DNA of 64,000 nt from an uncultured Ruminococcus sp. Its GTDB lineage: Bacteria; Bacillota; Clostridia; Oscillospirales; CAG-272. Shown piece by piece: positions 735-29,908 of the stretch; positions within the stretch are counted from its first letter, which is position 1; each line of letters opens with the position of its first letter. A model generated the notes under the pieces. That model had not been told where the DNA came from and ran no database searches. It was given only the letters and a program-made list of their open reading frames with translations. The translations under genes were made by a program, and so were the position numbers. The stretch is from contig CAZVYZ010000001.1 in assembly GCA_964630695.1 (NCBI GenBank), forward strand, positions 8,816 to 72,815, in the 5' to 3' direction.

Positions 735-2459
735 ATGATAACCGAGCGATTGGAACGCGGTGCGGAACGGGTACGCCGCGCGGCGGGGGATAGCGTCCTC
801 CTGAACACGTTCTTTTGCGGCGAACGGACAGAGCGGAAAAACAGGCGCGGAACCCTGCGCTTCCGCATCATGCGGTGGCAGGAGACTTCGTTTGCACGGC
901 AGGCAATGAATTCTCTTTGGGCGGCGCTCCTGCGGTCTTCGGTCGGGAGCCTTGCGGGGGTCCCGTTCGGTGCGGCAGCGAGCGCGCTGATTCTTTACTT
1001 TCTGCGCGGCGGGACGGATTTCACAACCGTATCCGTCACCGTTCCTGCGGTCGTCCTGTTCTCTGTGCTTCCTGCGGTCGGGGAGGAGCGGTCGCTTTCC
1101 CTCTGCCTGCAACGCGGACGGCTGACCGCGCCGTTTCTGTTCGGTTTCTGCGGACTGTCTCCCGATTGCTTCGGGGCAGGGGAGGCAGTCGGCGTGCGTC
1201 GCCGTGCCACACTTCCCGCCGGGCTTGCAATCGGGGCGCTGACGGCTTTTCTGCCACCGCTTGCATTGCCGCTTTTTGCCGCGGCGGTGTGCGTGTGGTT
1301 CCTTTGCCGTGCGGTCCCAGAGTTGAGTGCCCTGCTCCTTGCGCTGTCGTTTCCGTTCCTGCCGCTTCTGCCGCATACCACAGTCCTGCTCGCGTGCGGC
1401 GTGACGCTGTCGTTGGCGGTGTTCTGCGGGAAATGGCTTGTCGGGCGGCGGGACTTCCGCTTCGGAACGGTCGACCGTCTTGCGGCGGCGTTTGCGGTGG
1501 TCTACCTGCTTGCGGGTGGCGCGGCGGGCACGGTGTCAGCACTGCTTGCGTTTGGCGGTTGGTCGGTCTTTCGGAGCATGAGCGGACCGTGGAAACGGCG
1601 GGCGCTCGGCGGGCTGCTTTTTTCGGCTTCCGTGTGTGCGTGTATCGGTATTTTGGAATATGCAAGCGGACGCGCGGCGCTCCGTTGGGTGGATATGAGC
1701 CGTTTCTCCGACATCGGCGGCAGGGTCTGCGCCACCTTTGACAATCCGAACATTCTGGCTGTCTTTTTGCTCGCGGTTTACCCCGTGGCGCTGTGCGGAA
1801 CCGTGCGGTTCGCAAACCGCATGACGCGGTGTTTCAGCGGGGTTGGCGCCGCGTTGATTGCGGGGTGTATGGTGCTTACGTGGTCGCGCGGCGGCTGGCT
1901 CGGGATGCTCGCGGAAACGATCCTGTTCCTGCTTCTGACCAACGCAAAAAGCCTGACGGTCCTGTTTTGCCTGCCGCTTCCCGCCGCGGCGGCGCTCCCG
2001 TATCTGCCGCATACCGTGACGAACCGTTTTGCAAGCATCGGGGAATTCGCGGAAAGTTCGATCCGGTACCGGTTGGAGGTCTGGCGCGGTATCGCGCGGA
2101 TGGTTGCCGCAAATCCGTTCGGAATCGGGACGCGCGAGGCGGATTTCCGCCGCGTCTGGCAGGGATTTGCCGTTGCGGGAACCGAAACGGTCATGCACGC
2201 GCACGCGCTGTTTCCGCAGGTCGCGCTCGAAACGGGACTTGCGGGCGCGGCGGTTTTGGTGGTGTTTCTGTTTGGTCTGATACGGTCGTTCCGCCCGCGC
2301 GGTTGGGCGGTCGCGGGTTTCTCGGCGCTCGGGGGACTGCTTCTGATGGGACTGTTTGACTGCCTTTGGTATGCGCGGGGGATGCTCTGGTTGCTGTTTG
2401 CGGTCTGGGCGCTGATTCCGACGGAGGAGGATACGGAGGAGGATAGAGAAAAAGCATGA
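735..2459 (+). CDS. O-antigen ligase/polymerase family (Wzy_C-like) polytopic membrane protein
   Basis: 574-aa ORF with many hydrophobic helices; ...NPNILAVFLLAVYPVAL...LTWSRGGWLGMLAE... resembles the Wzy_C core; GGAGGTG RBS 7 nt before the ATG. Confidence 0.65.
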   Translation: MITERLERGAERVRRAAGDSVLLNTFFCGERTERKNRRGTLRFRIMRWQETSFARQAMNSLWAALLRSSVGSLAGVPFGAAASALILYFLRGGTDFTTVSVTVPAVVLFSVLPAVGEERSLSLCLQRGRLTAPFLFGFCGLSPDCFGAGEAVGVRRRATLPAGLAIGALTAFLPPLALPLFAAAVCVWFLCRAVPELSALLLALSFPFLPLLPHTTVLLACGVTLSLAVFCGKWLVGRRDFRFGTVDRLAAAFAVVYLLAGGAAGTVSALLAFGGWSVFRSMSGPWKRRALGGLLFSASVCACIGILEYASGRAALRWVDMSRFSDIGGRVCATFDNPNILAVFLLAVYPVALCGTVRFANRMTRCFSGVGAALIAGCMVLTWSRGGWLGMLAETILFLLLTNAKSLTVLFCLPLPAAAALPYLPHTVTNRFASIGEFAESSIRYRLEVWRGIARMVAANPFGIGTREADFRRVWQGFAVAGTETVMHAHALFPQVALETGLAGAAVLVVFLFGLIRSFRPRGWAVAGFSALGGLLLMGLFDCLWYARGMLWLLFAVWALIPTEEDTEEDREKA

Positions 2460-2923
2460 AAAAGCGGTGGAACGTGTTGGATTGGATCCTGCTTGCGTTG
2501 GCACTTGCCGTTCTGGTCGGCGGCGTGTGGGTTGTGCGCGCAAAACCTTGGAACCGCGTGCGGCGTGAGGTGCTGACCTGCACCGTGCGGACCGCGCCGT
2601 TTGACGGAGCAACGCGGGAGGCAGGCGTGCTTCCCCATGCGGGAGATGCGGTGCTGACTGCGGCGGGCGGCGAGACGGTCGGGCGTGTATTGGCGGTTGC
2701 GGTGGTCCCGCAAACCGTCCTGACGGCGGACGGTGACGCGCTGGCACTGACGCCCGTCCCCGACCGTTACGTCGCGGAGGTCACCGTGCGTTTGACGCTT
2801 GCGGAGCGTACCGTCGGCACCCACCGCATCGCGGCGGGCGGCACGGCGGACCTGATTTTCGGCGGCTATTTTGCCGCAGAATGCGGAATTTTGTCGGTGG
2901 AGGTGACGGAATGTGCGGAATGA
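2456..2923 (+). CDS. Membrane-anchored hypothetical protein (DUF4330-like)
   Basis: 155 aa, N-terminal TM helix WILLALALAVLVGGVWVV, ATGA overlap with the upstream gene; family call from memory only. Confidence 0.45.
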   Translation: MKKRWNVLDWILLALALAVLVGGVWVVRAKPWNRVRREVLTCTVRTAPFDGATREAGVLPHAGDAVLTAAGGETVGRVLAVAVVPQTVLTADGDALALTPVPDRYVAEVTVRLTLAERTVGTHRIAAGGTADLIFGGYFAAECGILSVEVTECAE

Positions 2924-3383
2924 ACACGCAACGCGACGATTGAGCGCAACCGATTTCGTCCTGCTGATTCTGTTGGTCCTTTCGGTGGCGGGAATCGGAT
3001 TGCGCGCTGTCCGAGGACGGATGACCGCCGCAGAGGGGACCCCGACCGAGGTCTATGCGGTGTGGCGGGCAACGGACCGACGGAGTGCCGATTGCCTGAC
3101 GCGCGGAGAAATCCTGCGGACTGCGGCAGGAGCGGAATTCGGGGAGGTTATCGGGATTCGCACAGTGGATGCCGTCCGCGCTCTGCAAACCGATTCCGCC
3201 GCGCTGACGGGGACGGTTCCGAATGACCCATTGTGCGACGTGTATCTGACGGTCCGCATCCGATTGACCGAGACGGACGGCATTGTAAGACGGGAAAACG
3301 GACAGCCGCTCCCCGTGGGGGCTTCCTATGAACTGTTTGGGGAACGTACCCGCCTCGTTTTGTCCGTTTTGCGGCTCGGATAG
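2913..3383 (+). CDS. Membrane-anchored hypothetical protein, paralogue-like of the preceding gene
   Basis: 156 aa, N-terminal TM helix FVLLILLVLSVAGIGL, overlaps the upstream gene end; same architecture. Confidence 0.45.
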   Translation: MRNEHATRRLSATDFVLLILLVLSVAGIGLRAVRGRMTAAEGTPTEVYAVWRATDRRSADCLTRGEILRTAAGAEFGEVIGIRTVDAVRALQTDSAALTGTVPNDPLCDVYLTVRIRLTETDGIVRRENGQPLPVGASYELFGERTRLVLSVLRLG

Positions 3384-3471
3384 CGGACTTATTGGGCAAC
3401 GACTCCTCCGGAACTATCCGAAATGCACGAAAAAAAGAGGTGCAATTTGTGAAATTGCGTCAGAATAACTA

Positions 3472-3500
3472 TTGATTTTGGACGCGCTTTTTGGTATACT
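3472..3500 (+). promoter_or_regulatory. Sigma-A type promoter for HPr gene
   Basis: TTGATT, 17-nt spacer, TATACT with upstream TG. Confidence 0.55.
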
Positions 3501-3576
3501 ATAAATGAGAATTTGTCGTGCCTATTTTTGTGCGGCGTGCATCCATATCTTTAAGAAACAGGGGAGCGAATACAGT

Positions 3577-3843
3577 ATGATTTCACGTGAAGTCGTCATC
3601 AATAATACGAGCGGTCTGCACGCCAGACCCGCGACTTTCTTTATCCAGAAAGCGAATTCTTATCCTTGTTCTGTCTGGATTGAAAAGGATGACCGCCGTG
3701 TCAACGCCAAGAGCCTGCTCGGCGTTCTTTCGCTCGGAATTGCCAAAGGAATGACCGTAACGCTGATGGCGGACGGACAAAGCGAGGAAGCCGCGCTGAA
3801 CGGTCTGTGCGAACTGATAGACAGCGGGTTCGCGGAAATCTGA
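3577..3843 (+). CDS. ptsH: Phosphocarrier protein HPr
   Basis: 88 aa; His15 motif NTSGLHARPA and Ser46 motif NAKSLLGVLSLG. Confidence 0.85.
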   Translation: MISREVVINNTSGLHARPATFFIQKANSYPCSVWIEKDDRRVNAKSLLGVLSLGIAKGMTVTLMADGQSEEAALNGLCELIDSGFAEI

Positions 3844-3861
3844 TACAAGCGGAGTTTTACC

Positions 3862-3896
3862 CACATAGCGGCGTGCCGACAGCACGCCGCTATGTG
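3862..3896 (+). terminator. 15-bp-stem hairpin after HPr (no clear T-run)
   Basis: CACATAGCGGCGTGC cgaca GCACGCCGCTATGTG. Confidence 0.45.
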
Positions 3897-4002
3897 TATC
3901 TGAAAGGATGTTTGCGGTTTGGCAGATCTTTCGTTGCAATGTTGTTTCCTGTTGGCTTATGGCATTCTATTGTAAGTCAGCAAGTATCTTTCACCCGAAG
4001 CG

Positions 4003-4290
4003 GAACGACCCGCGTGTCGTTCCGTCCCATTCAACAACTAACTTGAACCATTTCTATCCGGTAGCGGAGATGAGGCGAGGCAACAAGTTGCCGCCGTCCA
4101 AATCCCGCTGGACGGGATTTGGCTCGGAGCAGCCGGAAATAGTAGCACGGCAAATGGCTACACCCATAATCCGCACAACGTAAAGACAGAATCAAAAATT
4201 CAATTGAGTTAAAGGTCTTGAAGGTCCTTAGGGGACTTCTCCTTAAGAAGTCCCCTAAGCAGGGCTTGGGGCAGAGCCACAAGGTCTTTC
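4003..4290 (+). repeat. Structured ~290-bp intergenic module, copy A, ending at the uvrC RBS
   Basis: Collinear with 6238-6620: GGAACGACC.GCGTGTCGTTCC hairpin, CAACAACTAAC.TGAACCA.TTCTATCCGGTAGCGGAG, CCAA(A)TCCCGCTGGACGGGATT(T)GG hairpin, CGGAGCAGCCGGAA, TTAAAG.TCTTGAA, GGG.TT.GGGC...AGGTCTT. Confidence 0.85.
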
Positions 4291-4306
4291 ACAGGAGGAA
4301 AACGCA

Positions 4307-6172
4307 ATGCCACAAAGCGAAAGCACGCGGGAAAAGTTGTTGGAGCGGGCGAATAGCCTGCCGCTATGCCCGGGCGTGTATATCATGCGTGACGCGAGCG
4401 GTAAGGTGATATACGTCGGGAAGTCGCGGAAACTCCGGAACCGCGTCTCGCAGTATTTCCAGAACAGCGAGAAAAACCGAAAAACGGAACGCATGGTCGC
4501 GGCAGTCCGCTCGTTCGATTACTACCTCTGCGATAACGAGATGGAGGCACTGTCACTGGAGAATACCCTCATCAAACAGTATACCCCCAAGTATAACATC
4601 CGCCTGAAAGACGCAAAATCCTATCCGTATATCAAAATTACGGGCGGCGAGTACCCCCGCCTTGTCTTTACCCGCCACCGCGGAGCCGATAAGGCGCGCT
4701 ATTTCGGTCCCTATTCCGGCTCGGGAACCGCGTATGCCCTTATCGGTCTACTGAATAAGACACTGAAACTGCCAACCTGCTCGCGCGTGTTTCCGAGGGA
4801 CATCGGAAAGGAGCGCCCGTGCGTCTATTACCAAATCGGACGTTGTGCGGGGGTCTGCACCGGACAGGTGACGGGCGAGGAGTACCGCGAAACCATGCGG
4901 TGCGCGGCGGAACTCCTGGAGGGCAAAAACAGCGAAGTCAGGCGGCGGTTGGAGGAACAAATGACTGCCTATGCCGAAGAGGAGCGCTTTGAAGCGGCGG
5001 CAAAATGCCGCGATACCCTGCGGGCGCTCGGCGCAATCCGCGAGAAACAGAAAGTCGTGGCGTCTCCCGATACCGAGCAGGACGTTGTGGCACTGTATTC
5101 CGATGACCTCTGTACCTGCGTGTCGGTCTTTTTCATCCGAGGCGGTGTTCTCCACGATACACAGGAGATGATTTGCGGCGCGGACGGTATTCCGGAACCG
5201 GAGGATATGACCGCTTTTCTTACCGATTTCTACCGCTCCCGCGCCTACATTCCAGCAGAGGTCCTTATCGGCTTTGAAATGGCGGACGAGGACTGCGACC
5301 TGCTTGCAGGCAGTCTTTCCGCATTGGCGGAGCGCAGGATTCACGTCCGTGTGCCGGAGAGAGGGTCCAAACATACACTGTGCGAACTGGTGCGCAAAAA
5401 TGCCGCCGAAAAAGCACGGCAGTATGAAGCCGAAACGGGACAAAAGGAGAGCATCCTTGCGGACTTGGCGCATAAACTCGGTCTTGAGGTCCTGCCCGAA
5501 CGGATTGAAGCCTATGATATTTCCAACCTCGGGACAGAGCATCTGACCGCAGGCATGATTGTGTCGGTAAACGGGGCGTTCCGAAAGTCCGACTATCGCA
5601 GTTTCCGTATCCGTACCGTGGAGGGAACCGATGACTACGCTTCCATGCGTGAGGCACTGTCGCGGCGGCTGGCGCACCTCTCGGATGCCTCGGGGTCTTT
5701 CTCCGAGCGCCCCGACCTCATCCTCTTGGACGGCGGGCGGGGGCACGTCTCGGTGGTGCGGGAACTGCTCGGCGAACTGGGACTCGATATTCCCGTGTTC
5801 GGCATGGTCAAGGACGATTACCATAAAACCCGCGCGCTCTGCACGGATACCGACGAAATCAGCATCGCAAAGGACCGCGGACTCTTTACCATGATTTATA
5901 AGATTCAGGAAGAGGTCCACCGTTATACCGTGCGGTGCATGGAGCAGGCGAAATTGCGTACCCTGACCACCTCGGCACTGACGGCAATCCCGGGAATCGG
6001 CGAAGCGAAAGCGAAAAAACTGCTTCTGGCATTCGACGGTCTCGCCGCACTCAAATCGGCGGACGTGACTGCCCTCAAAGCCGTCGCGGGTATCAGCGAA
6101 CGGGACGCGGAAGCCGTGTACGCATACTACCACTCAAACGAAGAGAAAAGCGAAGATTCCAACCGCGAATAA
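4307..6172 (+). CDS. uvrC: Excinuclease ABC subunit C
   Basis: 621 aa; GIY-YIG N-terminus GVYIMRDASGKVIYVGKSRKLRNRVSQYF, UvrBC-interaction region, C-terminal HhH. Confidence 0.95.
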   Translation: MPQSESTREKLLERANSLPLCPGVYIMRDASGKVIYVGKSRKLRNRVSQYFQNSEKNRKTERMVAAVRSFDYYLCDNEMEALSLENTLIKQYTPKYNIRLKDAKSYPYIKITGGEYPRLVFTRHRGADKARYFGPYSGSGTAYALIGLLNKTLKLPTCSRVFPRDIGKERPCVYYQIGRCAGVCTGQVTGEEYRETMRCAAELLEGKNSEVRRRLEEQMTAYAEEERFEAAAKCRDTLRALGAIREKQKVVASPDTEQDVVALYSDDLCTCVSVFFIRGGVLHDTQEMICGADGIPEPEDMTAFLTDFYRSRAYIPAEVLIGFEMADEDCDLLAGSLSALAERRIHVRVPERGSKHTLCELVRKNAAEKARQYEAETGQKESILADLAHKLGLEVLPERIEAYDISNLGTEHLTAGMIVSVNGAFRKSDYRSFRIRTVEGTDDYASMREALSRRLAHLSDASGSFSERPDLILLDGGRGHVSVVRELLGELGLDIPVFGMVKDDYHKTRALCTDTDEISIAKDRGLFTMIYKIQEEVHRYTVRCMEQAKLRTLTTSALTAIPGIGEAKAKKLLLAFDGLAALKSADVTALKAVAGISERDAEAVYAYYHSNEEKSEDSNRE

Positions 6173-6237
6173 TGTATTTCGGTACCGTCAATAAGTATCA
6201 TCAATGGGTTACGCACTTTGCAGGGTCGTAATCCGTA

Positions 6238-6483
6238 GGGAACGACCTGCGTGTCGTTCCGCTCCGTCAACAACTAACCTGAACCACTTCTATCCGGTAG
6301 CGGAGCGAGCGGCGGTAGCCGCTTTGCCAATCCCGCTGGACGGGATTGGACGCGGAGCAGCCGGAATGCGTAGCACTTAAACGGCTACAGAAGAAACGGT
6401 ACCACAAAAAGAAAGGGGGAAAATCCCCCTTAGTTAAAGTTCTTGAAATTCTTAAAAACCTCTTTCAAGAAGTTTTCAAGTGG
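6238..6483 (+). repeat. Structured intergenic module, copy B, upstream of rsmD
   Basis: Same ordered sub-motifs as 4003-4290. Confidence 0.85.
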
Positions 6484-6620
6484 GGTTCGGGGCGACGCCC
6501 CGAGGTCTTAGGGTTCGGGGCGATGCCCCGAGGTCTTAGGGTTCGGGGCGACGCCCCGAGGTCTTAGGGTTCGGGGCGACGCCCCGAGGTCTTAGGGTTC
6601 GGGCAAAGCCCGAGGTCTTA
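6484..6620 (+). repeat. Tandem array, about 4.9 copies of a 28-bp hairpin unit, abutting the rsmD RBS
   Basis: GGTTCGGGGCGACGCCCCGAGGTCTTAG at 6484, 6512 (one substitution), 6540 and 6568, plus a degenerate copy at 6596; no spacers. Confidence 0.9.
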
Positions 6621-6636
6621 CAAAGGAGGAAGCACT

Positions 6637-7212
6637 ATGATGCGGATTATAACGGGCAAAGCAAGAGGCGTTCGGCTCGATACCCCGGAAGGGGAGAATA
6701 CCCGACCCACCGCCGAACGCGCGAAAGAAGCAATCTTTTCCATGCTGCAGTTTGAAATGGAGGACCGCGCGGTTCTGGACCTGTTCGCAGGCTCGGGTCA
6801 ACTCGGTCTGGAAGCGCTCAGCAGGGGCGCGGCGCACGCAGTGCTGGTCGACCGCGATAAGACTGCCGCCGAAATCATCAAAAAGAATACGATAAAAACC
6901 CGCCTCGCACCGGACTGCGAGGTGTACTGCGCGGATTATACCGAATTTTTGCGCGGATGCCGCGGCAAACGGCGGTTCGACTTGATTTTTCTCGACCCAC
7001 CTTATGCCCCGCGGCTGATTCCGGACGCCCTGCGGCAACTGAAAAAGTATCGCGCGCTTTCTCCGCACGCAACGGTGGTCTGCGAAAGCGGCGCGGAGGA
7101 GGACGTGTTCGGCGGGGACGACGCACTTGCGGCACTGTTTGACGTCCGACGCACCGCAAAATACGGCGCGGCATACGTGACGGTACTGGAGTACCGCGGG
7201 GAGGAAGCATGA
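6637..7212 (+). CDS. rsmD: 16S rRNA (guanine966-N2)-methyltransferase RsmD
   Basis: 191 aa; RIITGKARGVRL..RPT..R.KEAIF..L, DLFAGSGQLGLEALSRGA, FLDPPY. Confidence 0.85.
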   Translation: MMRIITGKARGVRLDTPEGENTRPTAERAKEAIFSMLQFEMEDRAVLDLFAGSGQLGLEALSRGAAHAVLVDRDKTAAEIIKKNTIKTRLAPDCEVYCADYTEFLRGCRGKRRFDLIFLDPPYAPRLIPDALRQLKKYRALSPHATVVCESGAEEDVFGGDDALAALFDVRRTAKYGAAYVTVLEYRGEEA

Positions 7213-7703
7213 AGAATCTCGCAATCCTGCCGGGGAGTTTTGACCCGATGACACTCGGACATCTGGAACTGGTCCGCAGGGCGGCAAAGGACTATGCGCA
7301 CCTTGTGATTGCCGTGATGGTCAACCCCGACAAGGAAACCCGTTTCACGCCCGAGGAACGGGTGGAAATCGCGCGCAGGACCGTTGCGGAATTCCCGCAG
7401 GCGGAGGTGCTGTTTGACGGCGGGCTGCTGATTGATTTGTATGACCGCCTCGGCGCCGATGCAGTGGTCAAGGGCTATCGGGACGGTAACGATTTGGCAT
7501 ATGAGCGGAAAATGGCGGCGTGGAACCGCGCGCATAACCGCAACTTCCGAACCGTCCTGCTCCGCTCGGAGGGACCGTATGCGTCTGTCAGTTCGACCGA
7601 GGTGCGGCGGCGGCTCGATACGGGCGGCGACATCCGCGCGCTGGTTCACCCCGCCGCACTGGAGTTGGTTGAAAAGAAGCGGGGCGGGAGGGAACGCAGA
7701 TGA
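7209..7703 (+). CDS. coaD: Phosphopantetheine adenylyltransferase
   Basis: 164 aa; PGSFDPMTLGHLELV nucleotidyltransferase motif; ATGA overlap with rsmD. Confidence 0.9.
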   Translation: MKNLAILPGSFDPMTLGHLELVRRAAKDYAHLVIAVMVNPDKETRFTPEERVEIARRTVAEFPQAEVLFDGGLLIDLYDRLGADAVVKGYRDGNDLAYERKMAAWNRAHNRNFRTVLLRSEGPYASVSSTEVRRRLDTGGDIRALVHPAALELVEKKRGGRERR

Positions 7704-11320: not shown

Positions 11321-13552
11321 TCAGTATTCTTTGAAAATTTCCAGAATTCGCCTGCCTGCTTCCTCTGCATTCAGTTTGTCAACGGCGAACGCGTGACGGA
11401 GCAGGTCGGTCGGAATGTAATCGTCGTATTTTTCAAACAGCGGGACCTCGCCCGAAGAGACCAATTCGTGCGGGTCGATTCCCGTTGCGGCTTGGTCGGC
11501 GAGAACGTGCATCAACTCGTAATCCGTCCCTTTGCTCATCTTGAACGCGATGAAATAGCACCCCTCGTATTCCACGCCGGTGATGCCGAACCGCGCGCTC
11601 TGCCCCTGAATCAGCCGTCGGACCGTGCGGAACGAGCGCGTCCCGAGCCACGGAAAGAGACAGTAGGAGTAGCCGCCGAGGTGAATCAGAGAATGCTCGG
11701 TCAGCCCCGTATTCCGCGCAACGTGGCGCGCCACCTCCAACCGCTTCTGCGCGTTCGGCTTGAGGTAGGGGTAGACCGTGTCCTCGCGCAGGACCTGCCG
11801 CATCCGCTCTGCAATGCGGGTGTGGACCTCGCCGTAGTCGCCGGGCCACGAGACTTCCATTTTACCCTCAACCGGCTGAACGTATATCAGTTTCCGCTGA
11901 ATGTCGAGTTCCTCCACCTCCCAGACCCGCCCTGCAAGTGCGAAACGGTCGCCGACGGGCGGCGGAGTGGTGATGGTCCCGATTTCGTCGGACCCCGCAC
12001 GGACCGTGTAGTCCTCGCTGTCTTTGAACACCGCGTAGAATTTGAAACTTTTCAGAAGCCGCTCGCCCGCAAGTCCGACAATCACGGTTTTCTCCTCGGT
12101 CATTTCCAGAAAATCATTGTTCAGCATGGAGAGGAGCAGAACCTTGTAGTCCTCCTTGCTGACCGCCGCAAACGGGGGGAGCGCCAACACGCGCTCGGCA
12201 AGCCGACGCACGGTCAGTTCTCCCGATGCCGCCAGAACGCTCAGCGTCTGGTGAAAGAGCAGGCTGAACGGCTGTTTCCGCACGATAGGCGGCTCAATGA
12301 AGCGTTCCTCGCGGTACAGTTCGATGATGGCAATCGCCTTGAGCAACTCCCAAGGCATCAGATGCGGCAGGGGCGTGTTCGGGAGCGGGTCCTCCTCGCG
12401 AAAGACCATCATCATCTCGGGCGGCTGTCCGCGTCTGCCCGAGCGCCCGAGCCGTTGCAGAAAACTCGTGACCGAGTTGGGGGATTGGTTTTGCAGGACC
12501 CGCTCCAACTTTCCGATGTCGATGCCGAGTTCCATCGTAACAGTTGCGCAGGTGACGGTTGGGGGACCCTCCTCGTCTTTCATTTTCAGTTCGGCTTCCT
12601 CGCGCAGAGCCGCCGAAAGGTTGCCGTGGTGAATCAGAAAATCATCGGGGTCGCCGCGCAGGCGCGCAATCTGGCGGAACGTCGCGCAGAGGTATTCGGT
12701 CTCCTCGCGGGAGTTGGAAAAGACCAATGCCCGCTTGCCCTGCACGCAGTCGTACATGAACGTGTAGCCCGCGTCGTAAACAATCGGCGCGGGGGAGGGA
12801 GACGGCTCGTCTTTCGGCTCGGTCGCCTGTTCCTCGCGGGGGGACTGAACGTAGAAATGCTCCAATCCCAAGCGCCAACGCAGGGCGCCTTGTGCAATGC
12901 GCGGAATGTCGGTCGACCGTCCCGAGCCTGCCGAGAGCCATGCCGCCGCCAGTTCGGGGTCCCCGACCGTTGCGGAAAGCCCTACGCGGCGCGGGTGGTA
13001 GCCGATGCTCCGACCGATGCGGGCAAGTTGACAGAGAATCTGGTTGCCGCGGTCCGAACCGGTCAGCGTGTGAATCTCGTCTATCACCACGAACCGCAGG
13101 TCACCGAACAGGCGCACGATGTCGTTGCTTCGGTTGATGAGCATCGCTTCCAATGATTCGGGGGTAATCTGAAGAATTCCGCGCGGGCGTTCGAGCAGTT
13201 TCTTTTTGTGGGACTGCGCCACGTCGCCGTGCCAGTGCGTCACGGGAATTCCGCTTTCCTCCAACAGGTCCGCAATGCGCCCGAACTGGTCGTTGATGAG
13301 ACTTTTCAGGGGGGCAATGTACAGCACCCCTATGCTCTCGGGCGGATTTTCACAGAGCAGGGAGAGGATGGGGAAGAACGCCGCTTCGGTCTTGCCGCTC
13401 GCGGTGGAGGAGGTCAGAAGCAGGTTGTTTTCGCTCCCGAAGACGGATTCCGCCGCCGCAACCTGCACGTCACGCAGGGAATCCCAGTTGTGGGCATAGA
13501 TGAATTCCCGGATGAAGTCGGGAAACCGCCCGAAAATCTCGGCTCCTCTCAT
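11321..13552 (-). CDS. sngC: Lhr-like DEAD/DEAH-box SF2 helicase (Shango SngC-type)
   Basis: 743 aa; motif I SSTASGKTEAAF, motif II VVIDEIHT, motif III LSATVG, motif VI QRLGRSGRRG; ATGA start/stop overlap with the upstream ATPase gene. Confidence 0.75.
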   Translation of the reverse strand: MRGAEIFGRFPDFIREFIYAHNWDSLRDVQVAAAESVFGSENNLLLTSSTASGKTEAAFFPILSLLCENPPESIGVLYIAPLKSLINDQFGRIADLLEESGIPVTHWHGDVAQSHKKKLLERPRGILQITPESLEAMLINRSNDIVRLFGDLRFVVIDEIHTLTGSDRGNQILCQLARIGRSIGYHPRRVGLSATVGDPELAAAWLSAGSGRSTDIPRIAQGALRWRLGLEHFYVQSPREEQATEPKDEPSPSPAPIVYDAGYTFMYDCVQGKRALVFSNSREETEYLCATFRQIARLRGDPDDFLIHHGNLSAALREEAELKMKDEEGPPTVTCATVTMELGIDIGKLERVLQNQSPNSVTSFLQRLGRSGRRGQPPEMMMVFREEDPLPNTPLPHLMPWELLKAIAIIELYREERFIEPPIVRKQPFSLLFHQTLSVLAASGELTVRRLAERVLALPPFAAVSKEDYKVLLLSMLNNDFLEMTEEKTVIVGLAGERLLKSFKFYAVFKDSEDYTVRAGSDEIGTITTPPPVGDRFALAGRVWEVEELDIQRKLIYVQPVEGKMEVSWPGDYGEVHTRIAERMRQVLREDTVYPYLKPNAQKRLEVARHVARNTGLTEHSLIHLGGYSYCLFPWLGTRSFRTVRRLIQGQSARFGITGVEYEGCYFIAFKMSKGTDYELMHVLADQAATGIDPHELVSSGEVPLFEKYDDYIPTDLLRHAFAVDKLNAEEAGRRILEIFKEY

Positions 13553-14946
13553 AGGTCAAGTTCGTCGATGGTGTAGGTCTTGGCGGGTGCAGGCTCGGCG
13601 GCGGACGCGTTCTGTTTTTCGTTCCCGTTTCTGTCATCGTCCTCGTCGCTGTCCCCGTGGCGGAGCGTGACCGCACTGCTCACCACATCGTCAAAGGTCG
13701 CCTCGGGGTTCTGCATCAGAATGTTCAGCACCGTCATGTAGTCGCGGAGCATTTCGCGCGGCGTGATGAGGCTGTCGGCGCCCGCGCGGGAGAGACAGAT
13801 TTGCAGAAAGCGTGTCATTTGTTCCTCGTTCACGCGCGGGGAAATCCCGTAATTCTGCGCGTAAAGTCCCGTGATGCGGACAATCAGCGCGTACAACTCG
13901 TCATCCGAGAGACGGCGCAGACGGATGACGGGACCGATGAGGTTTTTGTAGCCCTCGGGCGAAAAACGGCTGTCGCACAACCGACTGCGGAGCGCTTCGT
14001 AACTGAACAGTCCCCGCCGCGTGTCCTCCAGAAACTGCGGGGTTCCGCCGAGAATCAGCGCAAGCCCCGGGGCGCGCCCCTGCAGGGTGTCATTGAACAT
14101 GGAGAGAATCTTTTCGTAGTTGTTCTCGCGGCTCACGCGGTGCGGGATTTTGTAAAGGTTGACGCACTCGTCGATGAAGACCACCAGACCGCGGTAGCCC
14201 ATCACCCGCGCCATGGATGCCCAGAGTTTGAGAAAATCGTACCAGTTGTCATCATCGATGATGACCGACACCGAAAAGCCCAGTTCGTTGCGTGCTTCGG
14301 TTTTGGTGGAGAATTCCCCGCGGAGCCAACGCAGACAGGCGCTCTTGCGCGCGTCGTCCCCCTCCGTGTAGGCGCGGTAGTAAGCGGTGAGAACGTGTGC
14401 GAAATCGAATCCGCCGACTAAGAATTCCACCTCCTGCATCGCATTCAGGACCCGACGGTTCAACTCGGGGGAAAAGCGCGCGTCCTCGGGCGCAATCCCG
14501 CCGGCGGCAATGTCGGTCTGCAGCCCCGTAATCCATCGCGCAATCACGCGCGGCAGAGCGCCGCCGTCGGGTGCGGCTTTGGAGGCAAGGTTTTTCATCA
14601 GTTCGCGGTAGGTCGCAACGCCGCTTCCGTTGCTGCCGTAAAGACGGCGCTCGGGGGAGAGGTCGGCATCCGCAGTCAGAAAGCCGCGTTCCAGAGCGTA
14701 GCCGCGAATCAGTTGCATCAGAAAACTTTTGCCGCTTCCGTATCTGCCGATGAGAAAGCGCATCGACCCGCCGCCGTCATTGACCGCTTCCAGGTCGGAA
14801 AGCAGTGCCGCAATTTCGTCCTTTCTGCCAATGGCAAGGTAAGGCGCGCCCGAACGCGGGACCACGCCCGCCGAAACCGACGCGAGAAGCGAGGACAGAA
14901 TCCGCCGTGGGACCTGCCGGATGTCGGGATTGGTGTTCTGTTCCAT
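13549..14946 (-). CDS. sngB: DUF2791 / BREX-type ATP-binding protein (Shango SngB-type ATPase)
   Basis: 465 aa; Walker A FLIGRYGSGKSF, Walker B LVVFIDE; overall resemblance to the DUF2791 ATPases that accompany TerB-N/TerB-C proteins. Confidence 0.7.
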   Translation of the reverse strand: MEQNTNPDIRQVPRRILSSLLASVSAGVVPRSGAPYLAIGRKDEIAALLSDLEAVNDGGGSMRFLIGRYGSGKSFLMQLIRGYALERGFLTADADLSPERRLYGSNGSGVATYRELMKNLASKAAPDGGALPRVIARWITGLQTDIAAGGIAPEDARFSPELNRRVLNAMQEVEFLVGGFDFAHVLTAYYRAYTEGDDARKSACLRWLRGEFSTKTEARNELGFSVSVIIDDDNWYDFLKLWASMARVMGYRGLVVFIDECVNLYKIPHRVSRENNYEKILSMFNDTLQGRAPGLALILGGTPQFLEDTRRGLFSYEALRSRLCDSRFSPEGYKNLIGPVIRLRRLSDDELYALIVRITGLYAQNYGISPRVNEEQMTRFLQICLSRAGADSLITPREMLRDYMTVLNILMQNPEATFDDVVSSAVTLRHGDSDEDDDRNGNEKQNASAAEPAPAKTYTIDELDL

Positions 14947-23506: not shown

Positions 23507-23540
23507 AAGCGGAGCGAACTGTAGTTCGCTCCGCTTTTTG
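23507..23540 (+). terminator. Rho-independent terminator
   Basis: AAGCGGAGCGAAC tgta GTTCGCTCCGCTT then TTT. Confidence 0.85.
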
Positions 23541-23622: not shown

Positions 23623-23651
23623 TTGAAAAATGTTCCATAATATGGTATACT
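23623..23651 (+). promoter_or_regulatory. Sigma-A promoter upstream of the hsdM remnant
   Basis: TTGAAA, 17-nt spacer, TATACT. Confidence 0.55.
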
Positions 23652-23685: not shown

Positions 23686-24297
23686 ATGGCTGAAAAAACA
23701 ACCGCCGACATCGGCTTTGAAAAACAGATATGGGACGCCGCGTGCGTGCTGCGCGGGAATATGGACGCCTCGGAATACAAGAATGTGGTATTGGGGCTGA
23801 TTTTCCTCAAATACATTTCCGACCGCTTCGAGGAGAAGCACCGCGAACTGGTCGCGGAAGGTGACGGCTTCGAGGAGGATATCGACGAGTACACCTCCGA
23901 GGGGATTTTCTTTGTGCCGCAAGGCGCGCGGTGGGGTGACATTGCCGCAAAGGCACACACACCGGAAATCGGGACGGCGATTGACGAAGCGATGCGTGCG
24001 ATTGAGAAGGACAACAAGCGCCTGAAGGACATTCTGCCGAAAAACTTTGCCCGCCCGGAACTGGACAAGCGGCGCCTCGGCGAGGTGGTCGATCTTTTCA
24101 CCAACATCCGCATGATCGAGCACGGGGACGAGAAGGACATTCTCGGCAGAACCTATGAATACTGCCTTTCCAAATTCGCCGAGCAGGAGGGCAAACTGGC
24201 GGGCGAATTCTACACGCCGTCCTGCGTGGTGCGCACATTGGTAGAGGTTTTGCAACCCTATCACGGGCGTGTGTATGACCCCTGCTGCGGGAGCTGA
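23686..24297 (+). pseudogene. hsdM: Type I R-M methyltransferase HsdM, N-terminal ~200 aa only
   Basis: HsdM_N-like [38 protein letters not shown] and [29 protein letters not shown], then stops inside SAM motif I. Confidence 0.85.
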
Positions 24298-24479
24298 CCG
24301 ATATGCTCCGTCGGAACCGCACCATAGACTGGCAGAAGAAAGAGACTGCCCGCGCGGGAATGCGGAAGATGGTCAAGCGGCTACTCAAAAAGTACAAATA
24401 CCCGCCGGAGAAATACGAGGATGCCATTGAAACCGTCATGAGCCAGTGTGAACTTTGGACGGATCAGGCGGTGATGTAA
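24282..24479 (+). pseudogene. hsdR: Type I restriction enzyme HsdR, last ~65 aa only
   Basis: Other frame reads [61 protein letters not shown], the conserved HsdR C-terminal tail. Confidence 0.8.
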
Positions 24480-24499
24480 AAGATTTTGGAGTGTGTGTG

Positions 24500-27241
24500 T
24501 TGGATACGAAAAATAATTTGATCGTAGCAAAAGGGAAGCCGATCACCTCTCATGTGACGCACTGTGCTTACGATCGTAATACAAAAATGTGGAACGTGAC
24601 CTTTCAAAACGGGAAGACCTTCCGTTATAACTATGATAATATTGAATGGCTTAGAAATCCAATCAGGTTGGATCCTAAGTCGTATCATATATCCCATAAA
24701 GGAAAACCTTTTGATAACGTTAGCGCAATTTTGTCGTTTTCGGGAAAAAAAGAGGAGTATTGGCATATATGTTTTTCAAATGGTTATGAAAACGATTATT
24801 CCGTTTGTGAACTTTGCGTTGAAAGGTCTTGCTTGGAAGATGACGGAGCTCAAAAGATATTTTCCTATTTGCGACAGGTTGCGGAGAATACCGATCTGAA
24901 AACAGAGGACGGTGCCACAATTTTGGTGAACCAATATAAAAAAATTGACTTTATCGGTGAAAAAAACGCGCTTGCGGTTTATTTGAATCCCAATCAATAT
25001 TATGCAGAGACCGGGCTTGACGCGAGTTTGCTGATTTTTCCGTTTGGTTGCAATCAAAGTCAGTACCATGCCGTTGAACAGGCGATTCTGAATCATGTGA
25101 GCGTGATCGAAGGTCCCCCCGGTACAGGTAAGACGCAGACCATTCTGAATATTATTGCAAATTTGCTGATTCGTAAAAAGACTGTGCAGGTTGTCAGCAA
25201 CAATAATTCTGCCATAGAAAATATTATTGAGAAGCTTTCTTCTCCGAAATATGGCTTGGATTTTTTTGTTGCGTCCCTTGGGCGAGCGGAGAAAAAACAG
25301 CAGTTTCTTGATTCTCAAACGGCATGCTATCCGGATTTTTCTAAATGGCGAACAAACCGGGGCGGGAAACCAATAAGCAAAGTCGATATTCAGGCCTGCA
25401 GTGTTGCTCTTCAAACTGTTTATGAAAAAAGGGATCGACTTGCAAAGTTGATGGAAGAATCTGAAAATGTAAAAACAGAACAAAAGCACTTTCTTTCCGT
25501 TATGGCTGACTTGGGTGTGAAGGCGGTGGATTTCCCGAAGGACCTCTCGTCGGCGGTGATTTTACGTATCTGCCAAGAGTTCGAAGCGTTCCTGCACGGT
25601 CGAAGCAAGATGGGATTTTGGGGAAAGCTCCGATTTCGATTTATGTATGGTGTTTCGTTCGGTTTTTTTGAAAGTCAAAATGCCGACTCCTTGATTCCGG
25701 GAATGCAGATGGCGTATTATCGAAAAAGACTATCCGAACTCCATGTAGAAACAGCACGATTGCAAAGTGAATTAAAAAAGCTTGATGCCGACAAGTTGAG
25801 CAAGCAATTTGAGGAGGATTCGCTCTGCTATTTTCGGAAAGTTCTTTCGGATCGATATCATGAAAAAGGTGCGCGAATTGTTTTTGAGAAACAGGATCTG
25901 TGGATGGAACCGGAAATATTTCTGAAAGAGTATCCCGTTGTGTTAAGTACAACCTATTCGGCAAGGAGCAGTCTTGGAAAAAAAGCGCAATATGATTATG
26001 TTATCATGGATGAAGCGTCGCAGGTTGATGTAGCTACAGGAGCGCTCGCCTTGTCCTGTGCCCGCCATGCGGTAATTGTCGGAGACTGTAAACAGCTTCC
26101 TAATATCGTCACAAAACAGCAGGAGGAACTGCTTGAGGGAATATTCAAAGCGAATCAGGTTCCAATGGCGTATGATTGCGTAAAATACAGTTTTCTGTCT
26201 TCCATTTGTTCTTTGTTGGAAAAGCGGATTCCAAGGACGATTTTGCGTGAGCATTACCGCTGTGATCCCCTGATTATAGGTTATTGTAATCGAAAATTTT
26301 ATCATAATGAGTTGATCGTTATGACGGAGGCACATGAGGATTCATTGGAACTGGTGACGACTGTTGCGGGAAATCACATGCGAGAGCGAACCAATTTAAG
26401 GCAGGCAGAGGTCATTAAACAGGAAGTTCTTCCGACGCTGACTTGTCCGCATTATGAGATCGGAATCATTTCTCCGTATCGGTCTCAAGCGGAGTTGCTG
26501 AAAAGTGAAATCAATGACCCCGAAATCGAAATTGCTACGGTACATAAATTTCAGGGACGCGAAAAGGATGTTATTATTTTCAGCACCACCGACGATATTG
26601 TATCGGAGTTTTCTGATAATCAGAACTTGTTGAATGTTGCAGTTTCCAGAGCGAAAAAGAAGTTGATCGTGGTTGCATCGGAAATGGAGCAACCGATTGG
26701 AAGCAATGTCGGCGATCTGATTGGATATATCCGATATTATAATGGGGTGGAAACGCATAGCGCGGTAAGTTCTGTATTTGATTACCTTTATTCGCAAAAC
26801 AGGGAAAAACGGTTGGAGTATTTGAAAAAGCACAGGCGCATTTCCGAATTTGATTCCGAAAATCTGTTTTTTTCTTTGATCGAGGATGAATTAAAAAAGC
26901 GGAAAGAGGCACTTGGTGTAATCTGTCATCAACCATTATATTTATTATTCCGCGATTTAAGCAAACTGAATACGGAAGAGACTCGATTTGTCAGAACTGG
27001 ATTGTCGCATCTTGATTTTTTGATTTATAATAATGTTACAAAACGCCCACTTTTGGCGATTGAGGTGGATGGTTATCGTTATCATAAGTCGGACTCCGTG
27101 CAGGGCGAACGTGACCGACTGAAAAATCACATTTTGGAGGTTTATCACCTTCCACTCATCCGATTCAAAACCAACGGCAGTGGGGAACAAGAAATGTTGC
27201 AGGACGCTTTGAATCGGATTTGCGGAGGAAAGAGTGGATAA
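24500..27241 (+). CDS. Upf1/DNA2-like SF1 helicase (AAA_11/AAA_12) with unknown ~200-aa N-domain and C-terminal DUF2726-type PD-(D/E)xK nuclease
   Basis: Walker A IEGPPGTGKTQT, motif II VIMDEASQV, VIVGDCKQLPN, LREHYRCDPLIIGYCNRKFY, VHKFQGREKDVIIFS, LLNVAVSRAKKKLIVV. C-terminus SHLDFLIYNNVTKRPLLAIEVDGYRYHKSDSVQGERDRLKNHILEVYHLPLIRF. Start uncertain: TTG 24500 or GTG 24497 after GGAG; the ORF is open from 24455. GC is much lower than the flanks. Confidence 0.8.
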   Translation: MDTKNNLIVAKGKPITSHVTHCAYDRNTKMWNVTFQNGKTFRYNYDNIEWLRNPIRLDPKSYHISHKGKPFDNVSAILSFSGKKEEYWHICFSNGYENDYSVCELCVERSCLEDDGAQKIFSYLRQVAENTDLKTEDGATILVNQYKKIDFIGEKNALAVYLNPNQYYAETGLDASLLIFPFGCNQSQYHAVEQAILNHVSVIEGPPGTGKTQTILNIIANLLIRKKTVQVVSNNNSAIENIIEKLSSPKYGLDFFVASLGRAEKKQQFLDSQTACYPDFSKWRTNRGGKPISKVDIQACSVALQTVYEKRDRLAKLMEESENVKTEQKHFLSVMADLGVKAVDFPKDLSSAVILRICQEFEAFLHGRSKMGFWGKLRFRFMYGVSFGFFESQNADSLIPGMQMAYYRKRLSELHVETARLQSELKKLDADKLSKQFEEDSLCYFRKVLSDRYHEKGARIVFEKQDLWMEPEIFLKEYPVVLSTTYSARSSLGKKAQYDYVIMDEASQVDVATGALALSCARHAVIVGDCKQLPNIVTKQQEELLEGIFKANQVPMAYDCVKYSFLSSICSLLEKRIPRTILREHYRCDPLIIGYCNRKFYHNELIVMTEAHEDSLELVTTVAGNHMRERTNLRQAEVIKQEVLPTLTCPHYEIGIISPYRSQAELLKSEINDPEIEIATVHKFQGREKDVIIFSTTDDIVSEFSDNQNLLNVAVSRAKKKLIVVASEMEQPIGSNVGDLIGYIRYYNGVETHSAVSSVFDYLYSQNREKRLEYLKKHRRISEFDSENLFFSLIEDELKKRKEALGVICHQPLYLLFRDLSKLNTEETRFVRTGLSHLDFLIYNNVTKRPLLAIEVDGYRYHKSDSVQGERDRLKNHILEVYHLPLIRFKTNGSGEQEMLQDALNRICGGKSG

Positions 27242-27565
27242 TTCAGAAATCCCGAAACAGCGTCTTACCGGGAGAGTTTGGTGCGATTTTTCGCCCGTTC
27301 GCATCCGGAATTTTGCTGTTCAAAATCTGTACCTGAGAACCATTTCTTCGGCATCATGCTTTGCAGCATTCATCTCCTGCGCTCAACGGAGCGGGTCTGC
27401 GGCTTTCAGGGACTCTGTAATGCCTCTTTCGGCTTTCAGGCGGTCAAGGATGAGGACAACCGCTGCTCGCACTTCTGCATCGATTTTGGCAAGTTCTGCG
27501 GCAAGTGTGCCGCTTGTCAGCAGAAAAGTATAGGTTCCTCAGCGATGGCGCTTTAGGTATGCCAG

Positions 27566-27955
27566 GTGCAACTGCCCGTATTTTCCGATTGTAATCGGTT
27601 TCTGTTCCGGCAGGGTAAGGAAGCCGCGCGCAAGAAGGCACGTGACGTCGCAGAAAAGTTACGCTCCATGAGGCTGAATGAGGCAGCCAAAAAGGTGGAG
27701 GACGGCATTGAAGAGACCTTGACGTACATGGATTTCCCGTCACAACACAGGCTGAAGATCCGGACAAACAATGTTATTGAACGTATGAATCGTGAAATAC
27801 GACGCAGAACGAGAGTTGTTGGTACATTCCCTGATGGAAAGTCTGCTCTGATGCTGGTCTGCGCCGGACTGCGGTATGTTTCGGGAAAGGAGTGGGGCTC
27901 AAAGCGGTATCTTTGCATGAAATATTTGACTGAAGCTGCGACAGAAGTGGCATAA
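27566..27955 (+). pseudogene. IS256-family (mutator-type) transposase, C-terminal stub
   Basis: AEKLRSMRLNEAAKKVEDGIEETLTYMDFPSQHRLKIRTNNVIERMNREIRRRTRVVGTFPDGKSALMLV matches the IS256 Tnp C-terminus; the N-terminal ~270 aa are absent. Confidence 0.8.
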
Positions 27956-28137: not shown

Positions 28138-28167
28138 TTGACAGTACCCATAAAACCGTGGTATAAT
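28138..28167 (+). promoter_or_regulatory. Sigma-A promoter with extended -10 for the dfx operon
   Basis: TTGACA, 18-nt spacer, TGgTATAAT. Confidence 0.65.
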
Positions 28168-29491: not shown

Positions 29492-29908
29492 ATGCTATTC
29501 AATATAAAAGGGGAGCGTCGCTCAAAAAAATCGGAGGTACTATTACGGTCGATAAGCGCGATCCTTTGTTTGGTGTTCGTTCTTGCTGCGTGCGTCGGTT
29601 GCACCTCATATGCTTCATCTGATGAGGTTGCTACACGGAATGCAGAACTTAACGATGCAATTGCTGAACTTGATTCTCTCAAAGAAGGTTACGAAGCGGC
29701 TCAAAAAGAAATGGATGCCTTAAAGCCCGGTTGGGAAGAGGCTCAAAAGGAGTTAGACGCTCTTAAGACAAGCAACGAAACTGCGCAACAGGAAATTACA
29801 TCATTAAAGACCAGTAACTATAATCATAGCAAAATCATCACTTCACCTATAAGTGATGATTTTATTATATTTCGTTTTCACCCGACGTTTTATTGCAGGA
29901 TCTCTTAA
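29492..29908 (+). CDS. Putative lipoprotein with coiled-coil repeats, probably 3'-truncated
   Basis: Lipobox LAACVGC; repeats EAAQKEMDALK/EEAQKELDALK; the ORF tail reads through a terminator hairpin (about 29831-29863) that belongs to the convergent gene. Confidence 0.35.
   Translation: MLFNIKGERRSKKSEVLLRSISAILCLVFVLAACVGCTSYASSDEVATRNAELNDAIAELDSLKEGYEAAQKEMDALKPGWEEAQKELDALKTSNETAQQEITSLKTSNYNHSKIITSPISDDFIIFRFHPTFYCRIS

Follow-up and report, generated by a model that had tools for sequence, protein, structure and literature searches.

Within the 64,000-nucleotide stretch of an uncultured Ruminococcus sp. contig that was analysed here (the window), one gene encodes a 913-residue protein in which an intact Upf1/DNA2-like superfamily 1B (SF1B) helicase is joined to a C-terminal, Vsr-like PD-(D/E)xK nuclease domain and preceded by a small N-terminal β-barrel module. 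We consider cellular defence against phages or other invading DNA to be the most likely function of this stand-alone helicase–nuclease, in the manner of the single-protein systems Hhe and ProA, and place the probability of this reading at about 60%. SF1B enzymes translocate 5′ to 3′. In the mechanism that we envisage, the motor would load on single-stranded nucleic acid that becomes accessible on foreign DNA as it invades or replicates, and would move 5′ to 3′ along it, and the tethered nuclease would then nick or cut the foreign DNA. The N-terminal barrels may select the substrate or the trigger, be it a nucleic-acid feature or a phage protein, or may keep the enzyme inactive until that trigger is encountered.

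An intact gene joining a helicase to a nuclease

The open reading frame (ORF) at positions 24455–27241 of the forward strand is uninterrupted and comprises 928 amino acids when counted from its first TTG, as in the six-frame listing. However, the N termini of homologues read MDxxxNMIIAKGK in the alignment, and the matching in-frame TTG lies at 24500, which is therefore most likely the true start. The resulting protein of 913 residues begins with MDTKNNLIVAKGK and agrees in size with its full-length homologues, which measure 906–932 residues; residue numbers below refer to this protein unless the 928-residue ORF is stated. The gene and its parts are laid out as follows.

24488–24491, forward strand: ribosome-binding site GGAG, 8 nucleotides 5′ of the TTG start, read from the sequence
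24500–27241, forward strand: helicase–nuclease gene, 913 codons plus stop (the mechanical ORF runs from TTG 24455)
24500–24904, forward strand: N-terminal module, residues 1–135, two tandem five-stranded β units of ~50 amino acids followed by a long helix
25037–26749, forward strand: Upf1/DNA2-like SF1B helicase core, residues ~180–750, AAA_11 plus AAA_12
26909–27238, forward strand: DUF2726/Vsr-like PD-(D/E)xK nuclease domain, residues ~804–913, C-terminal

The gene has a GC content of 0.419, compared with 0.535 for the window and 0.53–0.57 for the adjoining remnants of a type I restriction–modification (R-M) system. Measured against a 96%-identical relative (on the contig L090), its ratio of nonsynonymous to synonymous substitution (dN/dS) is 0.25; the gene is intact and under purifying selection. 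An earlier note, drawn up from the letters of the window, had described an intact ORF of ~915 amino acids in a segment of lower GC, and on both points it was accurate.

The helicase is recognised by Pfam with 97 bits for AAA_11 and 89.1 bits for AAA_12 (cut-off 27 each), and all the SF1B motifs that the earlier note had quoted are present, namely GPPGTGKT at residue 205, DEASQ at 504, GDCKQLP at 528, YRC at 586, QGREKD at 685 and VAVSRAK at 713. Walker A, DEASQ, GDxKQLP, YRC, QGREKD and VAVSRAK are invariant in an alignment of 70 full-length homologues of 47–96% identity. In the full-length AlphaFold2 (AF2) model, which was built with the homologue alignment and has a mean predicted local distance difference test (pLDDT) of 89 and a predicted template modelling score of 0.84, residues ~140–200 run into helicase domain 1A, the RecA-like domains 1A and 2A occupy residues ~180–750 with a long helical insertion at ~295–455, and a helical linker at residues 760–800 lies between helicase and nuclease. 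A Foldseek search with the whole model returns IGHMBP2 (E 5e-22), then SETX, UPF1 and DNA2, at about 14–17% identity in the structural alignments, and a sequence search of the Protein Data Bank (PDB) with phmmer finds DNA2 at 2.7e-19 together with IGHMBP2, UPF1 and SEN1. By Pfam, motifs and fold alike, the helicase is an intact Upf1/DNA2-like SF1B enzyme.

The C-terminal domain likewise exceeds the curated cut-off of the DUF2726 family (PF10881), with 34.9 bits against 24.7 over residues 845–920 of the 928-residue ORF, so that all three families named in the earlier note for a profile check are present; the match to MTES_1575, at 25.5 bits, falls under the 38.2-bit cut-off of that family. The nuclease pattern that had been noted is also in place, with LDFLI at residue 838 and AIEVDG at 853. 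Residues D839, E855, D857, G858, Q868, D872, K875 and R888 are invariant in the 70 homologues, and H862 is kept in at least 90% of them. The AF2 model shows an α/β domain at ~805–910, in which the strands 838–845 and 851–857 bear the conserved acids. By analogy, D839, E855 and D857 would be catalytic acids; their retention across the 70 homologues answers the concern, raised in the earlier note, that the domain might lack such residues on alignment. No match at E ≤ 10 was found when the nuclease domain alone was compared with the sequences of the PDB. In the 2012 classification of PD-(D/E)xK nucleases, DUF2726 is classed with Vsr and DUF559 (PMC3424549), while Aravind's group has described it as a DNase of restriction-endonuclease fold that is fused to Abi-type sensor domains (PMC3710099).

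These same affinities bear on a different explanation, in which the protein is a helicase–nuclease of DNA repair or recombination that processes the flaps, stalled forks or breaks of its own chromosome as Dna2 does, with no role against invaders. The fold is Upf1/DNA2-like and DNA2 is among the best PDB sequence matches, and the nuclease domain has a repair enzyme, Vsr, as its founding relative (PMC3424549). We nevertheless regard a repair role as unlikely, given that the closest named relatives are anti-phage proteins and that the gene has an atypically low GC content and lies at a strain-variable site between R-M remnants and the stub of an insertion sequence (IS).

The N-terminal module and variants of the same chassis

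The N-terminal domain has no Pfam match, as the earlier note had supposed in finding nothing that it recognised, but it is shorter than the ~200 amino acids proposed there, at about 135. The structure prediction that the note recommended for this region gives two tandem β units and a helix: in the AF2 models the β units lie at residues 1–111, with pLDDT 81–94 across them, and the helix at 116–132, and the domain modelled separately has a pLDDT of 86.5. The best Foldseek match in the PDB is the tandem Tudor domain of 53BP1 (E 0.015, template modelling (TM) score about 0.25), and other weak matches are ribosomal eS4 and an endolysin SH3 domain, that is, barrels of the Tudor/SH3/KOW-like kind. 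As these fold matches are weak, the region is described here as a tandem small-barrel module and no homology is assigned to it. It may be a structural counterpart of the 1B barrel in Upf1-like helicases.

A profile of the N-terminal domain, which carries conserved aromatic and glycine positions in the homologue alignment, was searched against 1.84 billion cluster representatives (clusters of 50% identity) and retrieved 794 of them at E ≤ 0.001, the match always beginning at or near residue 1. Matches of odd length, which we considered as instances of the domain in other architectures, turned out to be fragments, internal deletions or assembly chimeras; one such chimera passes into Lon protease at the Walker A motif. 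Since the profile found no other true carriers, the module seems to be confined to the helicase–nuclease family. It is also the most diverged segment of the gene: over 24500–24904, comparison with L090 gives dS 0.21 and dN 0.06, about 3–10 times more synonymous and nonsynonymous change than in the remaining gene. This pattern of substitution suggests that the module is mosaic or recombined rather than uniformly diverged.

A special case of defence would be modification-dependent (type IV-like) restriction, in which the barrels would recognise glucosylated DNA or a modified base and guide the motor–nuclease there. The weak resemblance of the fold to tandem Tudor/SH3-like readers, with its conserved aromatic positions, points in this direction, as do neighbouring genes, which often encode type IV enzymes such as GmrSD and PLD-ResIII-DUF3427 proteins. 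However, the fold matches are not significant and the Pfam scan of the window protein detected no SRA, EVE, PUA, YTH or DUF3427 domain, so that we hold this specific form of defence to be improbable.

The exchange of specificity modules that modification-dependent restriction would predict does find a parallel in Escherichia coli, where the protein WP_000256229 (893 amino acids) keeps the helicase–nuclease behind a different N terminus. The order of its AAA_11, AAA_12 and DUF2726 domains is unchanged, and its identity to residues 179–910 of the window protein is about 35%; its N-terminal ~170 amino acids have no detectable similarity to the N-terminal domain in the window. The gene is present in 648 of 5,426 complete E. 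coli genomes, on a tRNA-Ser island that also bears iha, IS elements, an antirestriction gene and the YeeU/CbtA toxin–antitoxin pair. Two copies were located.

L087 (O157:H7 EDL933), 11489–14169: E. coli helicase–DUF2726 relative
L089, 15001–17682: E. coli helicase–DUF2726 relative

In EDL933 the gene is frameshifted into ORFs of 171 and 722 amino acids, and in other strains it is intact at 893. The small ORF 5′ of the EDL933 homologue was considered as a detached N-terminal domain and dismissed, since it shows no similarity to that domain and is the N terminus of the frameshifted gene itself.

A PAPS-reductase/DUF3440 gene adjoins the E. coli relative at both loci; in L087 the next gene is annotated as ParB N-terminal domain-containing (a weak ParB_N match of 18.8 bits), and in L089 the ParB-like position holds only a partial pseudogene. 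We take the pairing of a PAPS-reductase/DUF3440 gene with a ParB-like gene to be one that also occurs in other defence loci.

Variation is found at the opposite end as well. A few members of the window's own family (P0065, P0100 and P0102, of ~1,170–1,190 amino acids) have an extension after DUF2726 that consists of Toprim and the first ~100 positions of a bacterial topoisomerase domain, which, to judge from these domain matches, would be a second nucleic-acid-cutting or nucleic-acid-binding module on the same chassis. We tentatively propose a model that goes further than defence as such, and that we hold to be possible rather than probable. In this model, the N-terminal domain would be a new sensor for a phage cue (modified DNA, a replication intermediate or a phage protein) that licenses a minimal motor–nuclease of the Hhe/ProA type, and in gut Firmicutes and Bacteroidota the family would amount to a distinct, widely distributed immune system encoded by one gene, built on a chassis that takes swappable N-terminal sensors, as the E. 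coli variant and the variants fused to Toprim and topoisomerase might illustrate.

Local history, spread and neighbourhood

The position of the gene between a type I R-M scar and an IS256 stub, as described in the earlier note, is confirmed by Pfam matches to both hsd fragments and to the transposase fragment. The flanking features are as follows.

23686–24297, forward strand: truncated hsdM, its initial 203 codons and a stop; matches HsdM_N (110 bits) and profile positions 1–57 of N6_Mtase
24300–24479, forward strand: hsdR tail, its final 59 codons and the stop; matches positions 275–328 of 329 in T1RH-like_C (72 bits)
27234–27336, forward strand: start of a 110-amino-acid ORF, the first ~34 codons, overlapping the end of the gene; homology to relatives ends at 27336
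27566–27955, forward strand: C-terminal fragment of an IS256/Mutator transposase; Transposase_mut 71 bits, profile positions 285–369 of 379
28131, no strand: right edge of the strain-variable block, where the conserved dfx–ferritin–rubredoxin chromosome begins

As the start of hsdM abuts the tail of hsdR, a single internal deletion has removed hsdS entirely, together with the remainder of hsdM and the greater part of hsdR. The hsdR tail ends 20 nucleotides 5′ of the helicase–nuclease gene. The hsdM fragment has 88% nucleotide identity to the intact hsdM of L001, a locus in which a 69%-identical homologue of the helicase–nuclease has hsdM and hsdS on its upstream side and integrase and recombinase genes downstream. 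Three contigs (L090–L092) encode the 96%-identical protein, and in blastn comparisons they match the window at about 97% nucleotide identity (96.8% for L090) only over 24287–27336. On L090, an hsdR ORF that runs off the contig end and measures at least 562 amino acids (T1RH-like_C 322 bits) lies before the gene; the 110-amino-acid ORF and then a large serine recombinase on the opposite strand come after it. From the arrangements in L090 and L001 it follows that the ancestral unit was a recombinase-borne hsdM–hsdS–hsdR operon, a gap of 20 nucleotides and the helicase–nuclease gene. Comparison with these relatives indicates that the window arose from it by a deletion that fused hsdM codon 203 to the hsdR tail and by replacement of the right side at 27336. 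The helicase–nuclease would then have been cargo of a mobile element that also bore a type I R-M operon, and it has been retained while the R-M genes and the IS decayed.

Upstream of the hsdM fragment lies a promoter-like site at 23623–23651 (TTGAAA-17-TATACT with extended TG), directly preceded by a strong terminator-like hairpin at 23507–23536. This site, identified by its match to the consensus only, could still drive the helicase–nuclease gene. At the other end, the homology to relatives stops at 27336, and the 99-amino-acid ORF of the window at 27234–27533 is therefore chimeric. Its counterpart of 110 amino acids in L090–L092 has no Pfam match; it was considered as a partner of the helicase–nuclease and is treated as not required, in view of its truncation in the window and of the lack of any recurrent neighbour cluster among 80 loci. 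The interval between the end of homology and the IS256 fragment (27337–27565) has a GC content of 0.52, and its ORFs have no Pfam match.

The insertion site was compared by way of its right flank, dfx, because the left-flank gene gave only a 3-kb contig. In six other assemblies that encode an identical Dfx protein (L104–L109), the DNA 5′ of dfx differs. Housekeeping genes precede dfx in L104; a block of largely hypothetical genes that includes pcfJ does so in L105, L106 and L109, and also in L108, whose contig begins past the pcfJ position; and L107 carries a Flg_new gene. By blastn against L104, L105 and L107, homology to the window extends only over 28131/28149–29808/29818. The block in the window therefore occupies a strain-variable insertion site.

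Several further features of this flank were recorded. A sigma-70 promoter with 12 of 12 consensus positions (28138–28167, TTGACA-18-TATAAT with extended TG) lies directly 5′ of dfx, where homology with the other strains starts. Downstream, homology with L104–L109 ends at ~29818 within a coiled-coil/Amidase_3 gene, which measures 394–408 amino acids elsewhere and is a 138-amino-acid ORF in the window (29492–29908). In L104, two large genes without a Pfam family (908 and 1,016 amino acids, at 1446–7389) lie a few kilobases upstream of dfx.

Beyond these close relatives, length and architecture are shared by all of the best 120 database matches. With one genome scanned per GTDB species, at least 587 stretches that encode a relative were obtained, and the best 80 of these, which were analysed further, are 40–67% identical over the full length and span Clostridia, Negativicutes, Bacteroidales, Treponema, Fusobacterium, Paenibacillus, Chryseobacterium and Desulfitobacterium. 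The family is patchily spread across phyla, without synteny, and is horizontally mobile. All-against-all clustering of 1,194 ORFs from the 80 loci revealed no neighbour family in more than six of them, so that the gene stands alone and the idea of a multi-gene system with a conserved partner was rejected. The proposal of a single-gene defence candidate made in the earlier note thus stands as regards the absence of a conserved partner, mobility and consistency with the computed evidence, while defence activity itself stays an inference.

Elsewhere the gene often adjoins restriction genes of type I, II or IV, recombinases or other genes of defence type, which speaks for a defensive role. Neighbours at the 80 loci include AAA_14/DUF4143 ATPases (six loci), PLD-ResIII-DUF3427 enzymes, GmrSD and NERD proteins (three loci each), and also Mrr, a C5 methylase, SoFic, mREase_IV and a large serine recombinase; PADLOC and Pfam matches among the neighbours extend to BrxA, DrmMII, PbeA and HEC-06. 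One homologue adjoins an AAA_15/AAA_21 ATPase gene that is followed by an unannotated ORF of 212 amino acids. In a scan of viral contigs, which was swamped by the generic Walker A pattern and yielded one full-length relative, that relative (41% identity, on a predicted viral contig) sits after two DNA methyltransferases and an endonuclease.

Proteins of ~970–1,050 amino acids lie near the gene in three species (L063 6763–9915, L060 6380–9286 and L022 1582–4578). Those of L063 and L060 were scanned and read PLD-ResIII-Helicase_C-DUF3427, that of L022 belongs to the same BLAST cluster, and a NUDIX-like gene of 133–134 amino acids adjoins the DUF3427-type proteins of L022 and L060. The DUF3427 architecture is known from modification-dependent restriction enzymes.

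The genomic setting can also be read as that of a gene that serves its mobile element, through replication, transfer, persistence or the exclusion of competitors, for example as an addiction-type or anti-plasmid nuclease. Linkage to recombinases, integrases and IS elements is seen repeatedly, full-length copies occur on Bacteroides and Parabacteroides records of a plasmid collection, the E. coli relative is island cargo beside antirestriction and toxin–antitoxin genes, and one relative is the viral-contig copy described above. However, the 80 loci show no conserved link to an element type, a relaxase or a replication gene, many copies have no mobility gene nearby, and only three partial matches were found among 50,697 phage records. 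A service to the element in place of the host is accordingly unlikely, and in practice the distinction is blurred, since defence genes are commonly borne on such elements.

Several observations weigh against a role in defence. No anti-phage model of NCBIfam reaches its curated cut-off with the window protein (ProA, NF058533, 138.4 bits against 1500; Hhe, NF042953, 99.2 against 2000; the IGHMBP2 model likewise falls short, with 152 against 349), its PADLOC matches cover the helicase only, and a literature search found no published description of this architecture. The substrate, the polarity of movement and the role of the N-terminal domain are all inferred. When 149 nearest neighbours were compared with 150 genes 7–10 kb away (PADLOC plus Pfam, family-level counts only), the control genes proved about equally rich in PADLOC hits, with type I R-M, MADS and Cas3b among them, and the neighbourhood evidence is therefore suggestive and not quantified. 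Several homologues lie among purely housekeeping genes, and a related DUF4011 protein has been reported to belong to the core genome of every P. aeruginosa isolate (PMC10250203), so that such an architecture is not always accessory. These last two points would also suit an enzyme of DNA repair; against that explanation stand the patchy, cross-phylum distribution without synteny and the E. coli relative, which is found on an integrative island in only 12% of genomes.

Helicase–nuclease defence proteins are already numerous. If defence is indeed the function of the protein in the window, it would add a compact single-gene family, common in human-gut Clostridia and Bacteroidales, that current annotation misses. 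At half the size of Hhe and ProA, and with a confident predicted structure, it would offer a more tractable model for the discrimination of foreign from self nucleic acid, in which exchangeable N-terminal modules would provide a handle on the recognition of the trigger. Should it prove to be a repair enzyme or an element-maintenance factor, it would instead caution against inferring defence from a helicase-plus-nuclease architecture alone.

Relationship to known helicase–nuclease systems

The earlier note drew its parallels with Mokosh type II and Nhi, and knew of no validated counterpart. The likeness to Mokosh holds in so far as both helicases belong to the COG1112/Upf1-like group and MkoC, the type II protein, also combines helicase and nuclease in one polypeptide. 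The best PADLOC matches of the window protein are MkoC (188 bits; best stretch at positions 670–943 of 1136) and MkoA, of the type I pair MkoA/MkoB (159 bits), followed by PDC-S37 and Hhe (PDLC02194, 73 bits); the PADLOC check recommended in the note thus does return Mokosh and Hhe models, albeit for the helicase part. The Mokosh nuclease is of PLD type, whereas that of the window protein is Vsr-like and C-terminal, and no PLD-type family is among the 19 Pfam hits of the window protein at E ≤ 0.1.

Two observations could be taken to mean that the protein acts on RNA: the strength of the Mokosh matches, and the fact that the solved structures closest to it in fold, IGHMBP2, SETX and UPF1, belong to helicases of RNA or of RNA/DNA. 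Phage transcripts would then be detected or unwound by the helicase, a mode of action that has been put forward for Mokosh, and the nuclease would cut RNA or serve as an abortive-infection effector. We consider this highly improbable, as the Mokosh matches are limited to the helicase and lack the PLD domain, and Hhe and ProA are closer. To our knowledge, the characterised PD-(D/E)xK members of the Vsr/DUF559/MTES_1575/DUF2726 group are, moreover, all DNA endonucleases. Examples are Vsr and a homing endonuclease (PMC3424549).

In Nhi, the nuclease is N-terminal and the helicase C-terminal, which is the opposite of the order in the window protein, and no Nhi model is among its 25 best PADLOC matches. 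Nhi and Nhi-like proteins do share with it the combination of an SF1 helicase and a PD-(D/E)xK-class nuclease, in their case in anti-phage defence (Ragucci et al. 10.1101/2025.07.10.664194). DNA2, similarly, joins a PD-(D/E)xK nuclease to the same SF1B helicase fold and motifs. DNA2 itself acts in replication and repair, and carries at its N terminus a nuclease from another PD-(D/E)xK family.

The closest likeness is to Hhe and ProA, in which, as in the window protein, a single polypeptide carries an SF1B helicase followed directly by a Vsr-like PD-(D/E)xK domain. A preprint that cites Gao 2020 reports activity of Hhe, a system with a Vsr domain, against lambda, T3, T7 and PhiV-1 (bioRxiv 10.1101/2022.06.16.496414); the paper behind the name ProA was not traced in the literature. 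For comparison we used a plasmid-borne Paracoccus protein found by tblastn, which scores 2090 bits against the ProA model NF058533 (cut-off 1500) and also 763 bits against Hhe, and which has the architecture DUF4011, AAA_11/AAA_12, MTES_1575 and DUF3320. BLASTP aligns residues 471–888 of the window protein with Paracoccus residues 1281–1695 (E 1e-20), and hhalign with the family profile aligns 471–912 with 1280–1723 at 98.6% probability, so that the two proteins are collinear from helicase motif II through the entire nuclease domain. The match of the window protein to the Hhe model NF042953 is confined to helicase positions, but the nuclease regions alone of the window and Paracoccus proteins align at E 3e-7, with LLAIEVDGYRYH..RDRLKNHILE in the former and LAGVECDGARYH..RDRIRQAVLE in the MTES_1575 domain of the latter. 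The pattern (hydrophobic)-E-x-D-G-x-x-Y-H ... R-D-R is shared between the window protein and Hhe/ProA.

The differences are nonetheless considerable. Hhe and ProA comprise about 1,800–1,950 amino acids, compared with 913 here; their DUF4011 and DUF3320 domains are absent from the Pfam hits of the window protein; their nuclease is called MTES_1575, whereas here it is called DUF2726; and the tandem β-barrel N-terminal domain belongs to the family of the window protein and sets it apart from both. Given these differences, and scores below the cut-off of either model, the window protein belongs to neither Hhe nor ProA. Judged by these sequence comparisons, Hhe and ProA are its nearest known kind, and a closer analogue than Mokosh type II or Nhi. 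The view that the architecture had no validated counterpart was thus too strong, since Hhe and ProA are single-protein anti-phage systems that combine a helicase with a Vsr-like restriction endonuclease and are collinear with the window protein over the core. On the alignments presented here, the catalytic core of the window protein is homologous to those of named anti-phage proteins, and its helicase–nuclease logic belongs to a known class.

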